Made by a program: the position numbers and the translations under genes. From an uncultured Bacilli bacterium (lineage in GTDB: Bacteria > Bacillota_I > Bacilli_A > RF39 > UBA660), in contig CAKPMC010000001.1 of assembly GCA_934167875.1 (NCBI GenBank), forward strand, positions 13,634 through 77,633: 64,000 bases of DNA, written 5' to 3'. Below the pieces are notes generated by a model that worked only from the letters and a program-made list of their open reading frames with translations, made no database searches and was not told the origin of the DNA. Below, in pieces: positions 3,743 through 6,236 of the stretch. Position 1 is the first letter of the stretch. The number at the start of each line of letters is the position of its first letter.

Positions 3743-4345
3743 TTACACCCTTTCCCTTATTATTTTACGAATTTGTTTAACCTTAGTTTCTCCATAGATA
3801 CCAGAGTACTCTATTAACTCTTTTCTACAACGACCCTTTTTCATCAAGTGAATTTTTTCTAAGGTAAAACCAAAATGTTCTTCACGATAAATATTTATCA
3901 AACCACTAACACAATAATTATCAATAGCTATTCTTAAAGTTTCATCAAAATTGCTACTTTTAATTCCTAACCCTTTAGCAACCTCATTAGCCATAAAAGA
4001 AAAGTTTTTATCAACTGTATCATAATAACCAAGTGTAGGAATCAAAATATGACAGATACCACTAACATCAAGGTTCTCTATACCATCTAAATAAGAACTA
4101 AAATTTGTAAGAGACTCAGATTTTAAAATTCCATAATTATCTCTATGATAAATGCCATCTATTCTATCATCTTCAAAATTATATTTCTGCATTAAAATTT
4201 CTAATGACTCACAAGTTATTTCTTGATGTTCTCTCATATACTTAACAAACATAGCTTCTTTGTACTTAATAGCTTCATCACTTTTATGCTTTTTCAGGTA
4301 CTCTCTAATATCTTGTTCAGTAATTTCAAATTTTATATTTTCCAT
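3743..4345 (-). CDS. Hypothetical protein (200 aa) lying between the T-box leader and ileS
   Basis: The ORF is in the six-frame track. The true start is the internal ATG (MENIKFEIT) preceded by GGAGGG. The 29 residues ahead of it in the track ORF translate the T-box leader (LRWYR). There is a 3-nt gap to ileS. Confidence 0.6.
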   Translation of the reverse strand: MENIKFEITEQDIREYLKKHKSDEAIKYKEAMFVKYMREHQEITCESLEILMQKYNFEDDRIDGIYHRDNYGILKSESLTNFSSYLDGIENLDVSGICHILIPTLGYYDTVDKNFSFMANEVAKGLGIKSSNFDETLRIAIDNYCVSGLINIYREEHFGFTLEKIHLMKKGRCRKELIEYSGIYGETKVKQIRKIIRERV

Positions 4346-4582
4346 AAACCCTCCAATAAAAAAACGACTATTCTTCCATAAGGACGAATAATCGCGGTAC
4401 CACCTTAATTGATAATTATAAAAATTATCCACTTGAATCTGTAACGTAGATATACGGTTCTATCTTATCCATAAAACACAATCTTGAAAGTGATCTAAAT
4501 AATATTCTGTATATTCCTCTTTCACCAAATAAGGAACTCTCTAAATATTTCCTATTATTTCGTCTTTCGCACTTGTTTTAAC
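4346..4582 (-). promoter_or_regulatory. T-box riboswitch leader (tRNA-sensing antiterminator) controlling the hypothetical-gene/ileS operon
   Basis: On the minus strand there is an AGAGAG (AG-box) and GGTGAAAG, an F-box-like CCGTAT, and the conserved T-box AATTAAGGTGGTACCGCG at about 4395-4412. A terminator hairpin CGATTATTC...GAATAGTCG plus TTTTTTT follows immediately. Confidence 0.75.
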
Positions 4583-4587
4583 AACAT

Positions 4588-4620
4588 ATACTATAGCACA
4601 TTTTAATACTATGAACAAGT
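4588..4620 (-). promoter_or_regulatory. Putative sigma-A promoter for T-box leader 1 (TTGTTC-17-TATAGT)
   Basis: On the minus strand, TTGTTC (4613-4618), a 17-nt spacer and TATAGT (4590-4595) sit just upstream of the leader. Confidence 0.45.
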
Positions 4621-4633
4621 ATTTTTATACCAA

Positions 4634-5767
4634 TTATTTAACATACTTCTTTATTTTTTTATTATCATCATCAATTAAATTAAGAATTTTTAATACTTTT
4701 AACGTTTTATCTAATGCTAATCTATCATCAACATCTTTTTCTATCAATAGCTCAAAATTATCAAAAGCCTTAATAGCATCCTGTCTATTCTTTATATTAG
4801 TACTTTGCATCTTTAAATATAAATGTTTTTGAACTTCTAAAATTTCTGTTGAAAATAAATCTTTTATTAAAACTTTATCCTCTGTTTTTAATTGTCCTTT
4901 ATTTTTATATTTATAATTACCTGTTTCAATACTATCATAACGCGAATTAATTCTTTTTCCTTGACAAGAAACATAACTATTAACATTAAGATTAGTAACT
5001 ATTTTAGCTTTTTCACTTTTATTTTCTAATTGCGTAATAGTTACCTTATCACTAAAATCAGAACTAACTATATGACCACTATTATCTACAGCCTTTTTAT
5101 AATTAGGATCAAGAGTTGCATTTATAATATTTCCATAAGCTCCAAGATTATAATAGATTTTCTTATCTTTTCTAGAAAATTTATCATATAAAGTATTAAT
5201 TAGTCTTAATTTAGTTTTATCATTATGATATTTTTTCATTAACTCTTTAATATACTTTAAGCCCATAGTTCTATTATTTTTTTCATAATAAGCTAATAGA
5301 AGTATTTCTTTTCTAAATTGCGGTATATCAGCTTCTTTAATCTCATCAGCAGTAATATCGTTATAATAAACTCTTGTATATATTTTATTAACAGCTAAAT
5401 TATGTGGAAAATTATTTCTTGTTTTTCTTATTTCGATTCCTTGAAGCAATAAAGTAGCATCATACTTTATAGATTTAAAACCATTATCATATTGACTATA
5501 AGAATTACAAATAGCTATAGATTGTCTTAATTTAACTTTATCATTATTTTTCTTACCAATCTTAAGTAATATCAAAGCCTTAAAATAATCAATATTAGAT
5601 GATGATAAGGAATAGCTATTACATATTTCCAAGGCCTCATCACATTTTCCAGCGTCTAACAATTTACGAATATTTTTTAAAGTTTCATTTTCATTATTCA
5701 CAAGAATCATCTCCAATTTAATTGCTATTATAATATAAAGTAAGGTAAAAGAAAAGAATAAACACAA
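4634..5767 (-). CDS. Hypothetical protein (about 360-377 aa) downstream of divIVA
   Basis: A long ORF with no motif I recognise. The start is either the TTG at 5767 or the ATG at 5710, where the GGAG abuts the ATG with no spacer. Confidence 0.55.
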   Translation of the reverse strand: MCLFFSFTLLYIIIAIKLEMILVNNENETLKNIRKLLDAGKCDEALEICNSYSLSSSNIDYFKALILLKIGKKNNDKVKLRQSIAICNSYSQYDNGFKSIKYDATLLLQGIEIRKTRNNFPHNLAVNKIYTRVYYNDITADEIKEADIPQFRKEILLLAYYEKNNRTMGLKYIKELMKKYHNDKTKLRLINTLYDKFSRKDKKIYYNLGAYGNIINATLDPNYKKAVDNSGHIVSSDFSDKVTITQLENKSEKAKIVTNLNVNSYVSCQGKRINSRYDSIETGNYKYKNKGQLKTEDKVLIKDLFSTEILEVQKHLYLKMQSTNIKNRQDAIKAFDNFELLIEKDVDDRLALDKTLKVLKILNLIDDDNKKIKKYVK

Positions 5768-5770
5768 AAT

Positions 5771-6205
5771 TTATTCTTCAATCTCTAAAACTTCTATTTC
5801 TTCTACAACCTGTAATTGCTGTTCTACTATAGAACGCAATCTGTTCTTAAATATTCTTAAGTTACGTTCCATATTCTGATTTTTCATTTCGATCTTTTCA
5901 TTTCTAATTAAAGCATCATTAACTATTCTATTAGCATTACGATTAGCTTCATCTATAATAGCTTTAGCCTCACTTCTAGCCATTCTTCTAATATTTTCAC
6001 CAGACTCTTCAGCATTAGTTAAAGCTAAATTCAAACTTCTTTCAATATCTTGATAGTGGATAATTTGTCTTTTTAATGTAGCAATTTCATTTTGTTGGCG
6101 TTCAAGTTTATTTAATACTTTTTCAGTTTGTACGATCACATCATTTAAAAAAGCATTAACTTCTTGCTTATTATAGCCATTTAACTCCTTACTAAATTTC
6201 TTCAT
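5771..6205 (-). CDS. divIVA: Cell-division protein DivIVA
   Basis: The N-terminus FSKELNGYNKQEVNAFLNDV matches the conserved DivIVA lipid-binding N-terminal domain, followed by a coiled-coil. GAGGTGG precedes the ATG at 6205. The gene neighbours sepF and ileS, as in Bacillus. Confidence 0.85.
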   Translation of the reverse strand: MKKFSKELNGYNKQEVNAFLNDVIVQTEKVLNKLERQQNEIATLKRQIIHYQDIERSLNLALTNAEESGENIRRMARSEAKAIIDEANRNANRIVNDALIRNEKIEMKNQNMERNLRIFKNRLRSIVEQQLQVVEEIEVLEIEE

Positions 6206-6236
6206 AATCCACCTCAACTAATGAACTTCTAAAATT

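Follow-up and report, generated by a model that had tools for sequence, protein, structure and literature searches.

A probable passenger gene between an isoleucine T-box leader and ileS in an uncultured Bacilli bacterium

We analyzed a 64,000-nucleotide (nt) stretch of DNA from an uncultured Bacilli bacterium (GenBank assembly GCA_934167875.1, contig CAKPMC010000001.1, positions 13,634 to 77,633; referred to as the window), in which a T-box leader is followed by a gene for a 200-amino-acid (aa) protein, here called X, and by ileS, encoding isoleucyl-tRNA synthetase (IleRS). All coordinates are those of the whole window, and all elements of the locus are located on its minus strand (Table 1). 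We propose, with a probability of about 0.6, that X and ileS form a two-gene operon controlled by an isoleucine (Ile) T-box, and that X is a lineage-specific passenger which borrows the promoter of the leader and its control by tRNA-Ile charging, rather than an obligatory IleRS cofactor. This view is based on the diversity of the genes found at the same position in relatives, on empty positions, on branches of the X clade in which X was apparently lost or replaced, and on distant X relatives that reside between mutS and nusB.

Table 1. Features of the ileS and valS loci in the window
Feature	Position	Strand	Basis or remark
Putative sigma-A-type promoter	4590..4618	-	read from sequence and in-register conservation
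Ile-specific T-box leader RNA, transcription-attenuation type, 205 nt	4377..4581	-	RF00230
Specifier codon AUC (Ile), with conserved purine A4491	4492..4494	-	Rfam alignment position
Conserved T-box sequence AATTAAGGTGGTACCGCG, antiterminator 5' half	4393..4410	-	Rfam match, folding
Predicted intrinsic terminator (hairpin 4395-4364, U7 4364-4358)	4358..4395	-	folding
Ribosome-binding site GGAGG, 4 nt 5' of the X ATG	4350..4354	-	sequence; GGAGG/AGGAGG kept in orthologues
X, 200-aa protein, 603-nt gene	3743..4345	-	ATG 4345, stop TAA 3745-3743
Hypervariable, apparently recombining cassette of X, codons ~109-176 (helix-turn-helix and wing of module 2)	3818..4021	-	alignments
ileS, type-2 (MupA/MupB-like) isoleucyl-tRNA synthetase, 1031 aa	644..3739	-	TIGR00392
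Val T-box	21795-21591	-	RF00230, 108.2 bits; specifier GUA-G read by eye
HD-domain protein (PF01966), ~250 aa	~21570-20818	-	after Val T-box
150-aa open reading frame, no family	~20825-20373	-	between HD gene and valS
valS	20379-17842	-	overlaps preceding 150-aa open reading frame

The junction between leader and ileS holds variable genes

An initial annotation, made from the window's sequence alone, had suggested comparing the regions upstream of ileS in related taxa. We scanned metagenomes with the N-terminus of IleRS as the only seed, independently of X, and obtained 80 loci (73-100% identity). In 74 of them the leader was located by nhmmer with a leader profile, and the open reading frames (ORFs) between leader and ileS were classified. 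A locus was considered direct if the leader abuts ileS with a gap of at most 80 nt. This is the case at 39 of the 74 loci. The others carry a gene for a Na_Ca_ex protein (12 loci), a CYTH-domain protein (nine loci, in one case preceded by a gene for a 597-aa GNAT protein), X (two loci, both from the window's own species), a 260-aa Zn-ribbon/PASTA protein (one locus), or a 214-aa protein of no known family (one locus), while the slot of the last ten consists of a 200-370-nt gap with or without small ORFs. The domain assignments were confirmed with Pfam. Dereplication at 97% IleRS identity left 53 lineages, 23 of which are direct. The end of each passenger is no more than a few nt away from ileS, and a Shine-Dalgarno sequence is located just 5' of ileS.

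The CYTH genes (PF01928, 181-192 aa) occupy the position of X at loci L028-L031, L054-L057, and L093 and end 2 nt before ileS or overlap it; at L093, the gene for the GNAT-containing protein lies ahead of the CYTH gene. Na_Ca_ex genes (PF01699, ~316 aa) were found under the Ile T-box at L041, L070, L071, L073, L075-L077, L080-L083, and L089, and in addition ahead of X at L011, L015, L017, and L004. An Ile-regulated transporter of the CaCA type is unexpected. The loci with a 200-370-nt gap include a clade (L039, L043-L045, L048-L050, L053, and L059), several members of which contain small ORFs of 71-121 aa. Several of these ORFs, two of them ~120 aa long, share a basic C-terminal tail (...GNNNNxKCLKKVKRTFNK) and may represent another small passenger family.

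Leaders of every slot architecture have AUC as specifier with A as the next nucleotide (kept in 10 of 11 related leaders in one set and in 19 of 19 in another), so that they can be regarded as orthologous Ile leaders. One lineage is polymorphic: L035 contains the 260-aa PASTA gene and L038 is direct, with IleRS N-termini at least 97% identical, which points to a recent turnover of the slot. In a neighbor-joining tree of IleRS, built from 300 residues and without support values, the X loci form a single clade. Inside this clade are the X-less loci L033, L040, and L042 as well as the CYTH-bearing loci L028-L031, which suggests that X was lost in one branch and replaced by a CYTH gene in another; the number of such events is provisional. 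Taken together, one orthologous leader-synthetase junction seems to hold at least seven unrelated occupants and to turn over rapidly. Both the X family and this variability appear to be new, and our search of an incomplete library found no literature that mentions a T-box together with CYTH.

X homologues at ileS and elsewhere

All X homologues for which downstream DNA was available directly precede a type-2 ileS, with the exception of distant members (X-ileS loci L001-L004, L006, L007, L009, L012, L014, L015, L017, L018, and L023). The spacing between the two genes amounts to 3-40 nt in more than 20 loci, with X identities as low as 31%. At most X loci the Ile T-box is located directly 5' of X, and at L011, L017, and L015 the gene for a Na_Ca_ex membrane protein is found between T-box and X. 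L015 carries an additional, truncated X paralogue (hhalign 99.2%), and L017 a second Na_Ca_ex copy just upstream of the leader. A T-box is seemingly missing at L004, which is explained by a Na_Ca_ex gene that lies ahead of X and inside which the contig ends. The distant members of the family (E values of 1e-9 to 1e-17; L019-L022) are not found at ileS but between mutS and nusB, as one to three tandem paralogues in another AT-rich lineage. They start only 55 nt after mutS, which leaves no room for a T-box.

X is a genuine gene with a narrow distribution

The initial annotation had described X as a protein of no known family, and searches of Pfam, NCBIfam, PHROGs, PADLOC, and the sequences in the Protein Data Bank (PDB) indeed gave no family match; PADLOC and PHROGs also gave none for two other types of the variable cassette described below. 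A k-mer-seeded search retrieved 89 clusters of homologues with 36-97% identity, nearly all of them 184-220 aa long, all derived from metagenomes or metagenome-assembled genomes, and none with a functional name. An exhaustive profile search of 1.84 billion representative proteins returned only 71 clusters, and a second profile search that included the distant members added neither further relatives nor an annotation. These comparisons show X to be a real and rapidly evolving protein whose distribution is limited to a small set of AT-rich, uncultured Bacilli from the gut.

If the ORF lacked conservation in relatives and any coding signal, the stretch would simply be a long leader, as the initial annotation had pointed out, and the general tendency of AT-rich DNA to yield chance ORFs is the one point that speaks for this alternative. 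It is already refuted by the conservation and coding-signal results. Full-length homologues with invariant residues extend down to 31% identity, and all close family members share G96, C98, P103, Y108, Y144, and Y180. The codon-position composition of X (position 1 rich in G, position 3 rich in T) resembles that of ileS, valS, and htpG and differs from that of the leader, and the GGAGG is correctly spaced. Two divergent members of the family are modeled by AlphaFold2 with predicted local distance difference test (pLDDT) scores of 90-92, and the terminator is located upstream of the ORF, not behind it. X is therefore a genuine gene. Compared with the L011 orthologue (85% identical), its ratio of nonsynonymous to synonymous substitutions (dN/dS) is 0.51.

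In one homologue, P0059 (a contig of 1795 nt from the European Nucleotide Archive), X residues 1-115 are followed by a Sua5/YrdC-like C-terminus (PF01300). The two parts meet precisely where the hypervariable cassette begins, and the sequence is probably an assembly chimera.

The leader and its promoter

The covariance model RF00230 aligns over its full length (model positions 1-219) to 4581-4377 with 87.3 bits (E 1.2e-19), slightly below the curated gathering cut-off of 93. Orthologous leaders score between 72 and 102 bits, and those of L005 (101.6) and L015 (98.2) exceed this cut-off. Stem I contains the AGAGA motif (4542-4538) and the distal-loop sequence GGTGAAA (GGUGAAA in the RNA; 4526-4520). 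The T-box core, AAUUAAGGUGGUACCGCG at 4410-4393, is part of a predicted antiterminator with a UGGN bulge, and this antiterminator and the terminator are mutually exclusive. The antiterminator is predicted to fold with -5.7 kcal/mol and has the canonical 7-nt bulge, whose UGGU is complementary to the ACCA 3' end of tRNA. The terminator hairpin, which overlaps the 3' half of the antiterminator, has a calculated free energy of -16.1 kcal/mol (z score -4.93), and none of 200 shuffled sequences folded as well. We identify the leader as a predicted Ile T-box, and the core and terminator with U7 that had been noted before ileS in the initial annotation agree with both the Rfam match and the folding.

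The promoter that had been proposed ahead of this leader is present as a -35 element TTGTTC (4618-4613), a 17-nt spacer, and a -10 element TATAGT (4595-4590), which is part of an extended -10 sequence TGcTATAGT (4598-4590, with the TG at 4598-4597). A consensus promoter scan did not call it; the -35 element matches the consensus at only three of six positions, and promoter-like matches in this AT-rich stretch are not more frequent than in shuffled sequence. We nevertheless regard it as the putative promoter because TTG and TGnTATAnT are kept in register, at equal positions, across 11 orthologous leaders. A search for operator-like palindromes near the promoter gave weak AT-rich matches only.

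ileS and its junction with X

The synthetase matches TIGR00392 with 944.9 bits (cut-off 621) and is a type-2 isoleucyl-tRNA synthetase. The MupA model aligns at positions 20-1008 of 1024 with 943 bits; as this is below the 1900-bit exception cut-off, the protein is not MupA itself. It also aligns over its full length to the MupB model, likewise under the exception cut-off. Orthologues of this ileS carry the domain PF19302 (DUF5915).

The ileS start codon (3739) follows the X stop after 3 nt (TAA ATT ATG), the gap given in the initial annotation, and the ileS Shine-Dalgarno sequence (GAAAGGGTG) is located within the last codons of X. Because of this arrangement, X and ileS are probably co-transcribed and translationally coupled. 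The two genes share a reading frame in the window, L007, and L009, whereas their frames differ in L002 and L017. A fusion of X and IleRS by stop-codon read-through was considered and dropped, since the frame relation is not conserved in the latter two.

Predicted fold of X and its hypervariable cassette

The AlphaFold2 model of X (pLDDT 89.8, predicted template modeling score 0.87) consists of two modules with a helix-helix-helix-beta-hairpin order, which are winged-helix-like (residues ~1-80 and ~90-168), and a predicted C-terminal helical hairpin (residues 170-199). The modules are acidic (net charges of -5 and -6), which is atypical for DNA binders, and the C-terminal hairpin is basic (+7). 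The best structural neighbors are DNA-binding winged-helix proteins, namely PadR, the replication terminator protein RTP, ArsR, and the Cdc6 winged helix, although the similarity to solved structures is weak. Among known winged-helix proteins, X is best compared with the PadR family, B. subtilis RTP, the C-terminal winged helix of Cdc6/Orc1, and tandem winged-helix "kite" proteins such as ScpB. Pfam and NCBIfam gave no match that would place X among the winged-helix transcription factors of the PadR, MarR, or ArsR type. HTH_10 matches residues 105-141 below threshold (18.4 bits; cut-off 23.1) in 6 of 42 family members. ScpB chains reached template modeling scores of only 0.21-0.24 with probabilities of at most 0.25, and X has no match to PF04079, so that we found no indication of a Kite/ScpB protein. 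Accessory or trans-editing proteins of aminoacyl-tRNA synthetases (YbaK/ProX, AlaX, or the Trbp111/Arc1p type) were found neither in the Pfam, NCBIfam, and PDB searches nor among the top fold matches. Cys98 and His99 were considered as a catalytic or metal site, but this pair is conserved neither among the distant members nor in the paralogue at L015. With low confidence, the model suggests that X is a non-enzymatic binding protein.

The central part of X varies strongly between close relatives. Compared with L009, the T-box leader and ileS show 92-98% and X codons 1-105 show 83-95% nucleotide identity, yet the identity is only 37-48% over codons ~108-180 (window positions 4022-3800). Pairwise identity within the family averages 64% in the N region and 66% in the C region but 31% in the middle, and 13 pairs of X proteins are at least 85% identical in the N region yet at most 30% in the middle. 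A single cluster of N types bears four distinct middle types, so that N and middle types are incongruent. For P0042, which has another middle type, the same order of secondary structure elements is predicted (pLDDT 91.8). Because of this incongruence and the shared predicted fold, module 2 of X reads as a recombining, isostructural cassette. The conserved N-module and the basic C-terminal helices could then serve as a constant scaffold, and the swappable winged-helix cassette would recognize a strain-variable ligand, either a nucleic acid or a protein.

Discussion

According to the established T-box mechanism, transcription would start at the extended -10 promoter and enter the 205-nt leader. 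Uncharged tRNA-Ile(GAU) would pair with the AUC specifier and, through its free 3' end, with the UGGU bulge. This pairing would stabilize the antiterminator and allow RNA polymerase to pass the terminator at 4395-4358, and read-through would yield one mRNA for X and ileS.

Several points weigh against our interpretation of X as a passenger in such an operon. X and ileS are strictly adjacent across a clade in which X has diverged to ~31-40% identity, and a functional link would give the same pattern. Genomes without X at ileS may carry it elsewhere. The proposed co-transcription and coupling are deduced from spacing alone, the loss and replacement events are provisional given the short and unsupported IleRS tree, and a binding role would have to reconcile the predicted fold with its weak likeness to solved structures and its acidic modules.

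The adjacency would also be expected if X were an accessory factor dedicated to IleRS or tRNA-Ile, involved for example in assembly, tRNA handling, or quality control and kept next to ileS for a fixed proportion of the two products. It is invariant at 3-40 nt in more than 20 loci despite the divergence of X, it persists even where Na_Ca_ex is inserted ahead of X, and both genes are under common Ile T-box control. We nevertheless consider this unlikely, since sub-lineages whose IleRS is 82-90% identical have no X or a CYTH gene instead, about half of the related ileS loci have an empty slot, and distant X relatives reside between mutS and nusB. Moreover, a hypervariable cassette is a poor fit for binding a near-invariant IleRS or tRNA, and X lacks similarity to known trans-editing or tRNA-binding families. 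It is unlikely as well that X acts as a winged-helix regulator, which would indicate the state of tRNA-Ile charging by its own level, bind DNA or another regulator, and relay Ile starvation, with the cassette setting its targets. The predicted tandem winged-helix modules, the DNA-binding winged-helix proteins among the top structural neighbors, and the sub-threshold HTH_10 match are consistent with such a function, and T-box-controlled regulator genes are documented, as for anti-TRAP of B. subtilis (PMC2494555); the acidic charge of the modules and the missing profile matches do not fit this picture. The sharp borders of the cassette (~40% identity between strains with flanks 92-98% identical) and the incongruent module types, which indicate recombination or diversifying selection, could also reflect an arms race. 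X would then function in conflicts, as an immunity or sensor protein, and be induced by a collapse of tRNA-Ile charging, for instance upon attack by a phage or by a toxin directed against IleRS or tRNA-Ile. This seems very unlikely to us: neither PADLOC nor PHROGs gave a match, no effector-like neighbor was found, the X gene lies on the chromosome within a core division cluster (SepF-DivIVA-...-ileS), and the variability may equally result from relaxed constraint together with recombination (dN/dS ~0.5).

The architecture of the locus is of a known kind. The cysE-cysS operon of B. subtilis, for example, is a T-box operon with a non-synthetase first gene. In nearly all Firmicutes, ileS is controlled by a T-box, usually with the leader adjoining ileS (PMC2494555; 10.1101/2022.02.09.479832). 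The ileS T-boxes of Bacillus subtilis, Staphylococcus aureus, and Priestia megaterium (ileS1 and ileS2) resemble the one described here in being of the attenuation type and in their Ile specifier, T-box sequence, and terminator/antiterminator. In contrast to these leaders, which adjoin ileS, the window has a 603-nt gene in between, and its relatives have other genes. T-boxes ahead of genes of unknown or unrelated function, ~8% of all T-boxes, were already catalogued in 2008 (PMC2494555), and a T-box-driven extra gene before a synthetase is therefore nothing new in kind. The streptococcal "Val/Ala/Gly/Thr-tRNA ligase related hypotheticals" and the rtpA (anti-TRAP) operon of B. subtilis are comparable, as a T-box drives an extra gene with or instead of a synthetase (PMC2494555). 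But X belongs to none of the families listed there for T-box non-synthetase operons (PMC2494555), and here, unlike in those operons, one orthologous junction has at least seven unrelated occupants in close relatives.

A T-box leader and the gene behind it are commonly seen as a fixed pair. If the variability of the slot holds up, new genes in these genomes would preferentially settle at riboswitch-proximal positions, which bears on the evolution of operons, and the specificity of a T-box would by itself say less about the function of a downstream gene than is often assumed. X and its homologues would make up a new protein family, characterized by a recombining winged-helix cassette and predicted to be expressed according to tRNA-Ile charging, and thus a concrete target for experiments. 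Several occupants are of the nucleotide-phosphohydrolase type, CYTH at ileS in relatives and the HD protein at valS in the window, so that amino-acid starvation might be coupled to nucleotide-signal metabolism by T-boxes. In this group of Bacilli, the leader-synthetase junction would then be a general plug-in site that wires accessory genes to tRNA charging, with X as a new type of starvation-induced factor of variable specificity, a distinctly unlikely, speculative extension.

The valS operon and neighboring genes

The initial annotation had assumed that two synthetase operons of the window, ileS and valS, each acquired one leader-proximal gene. This is supported for ileS, where 39 of 74 related loci are direct and others have unrelated genes, but the valS operon contains two such genes, not one (Table 1). 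The suggested remote homology between X and the HD protein of the valS operon was rejected (BLASTP E 0.18), as was homology to the 150-aa protein of that operon (hhalign probability 0.9%).

The synteny around X loci is usually SepF-DivIVA-...-ileS. In the window, divIVA (5771-6217) is separated from the ileS promoter by a 377-aa ORF without a Pfam or PHROG match (4634-5767, minus strand). Relatives differ here too: the ORF is absent from L009, and L007 has an ABC transporter and a 397-aa ORF, L002 a 216-aa and a 453-aa ORF. No tRNA genes were found in the window. Its GC content is 26%, and it contains 52 ORFs with a length of 120 aa or more, all but one of them (51) on the minus strand.
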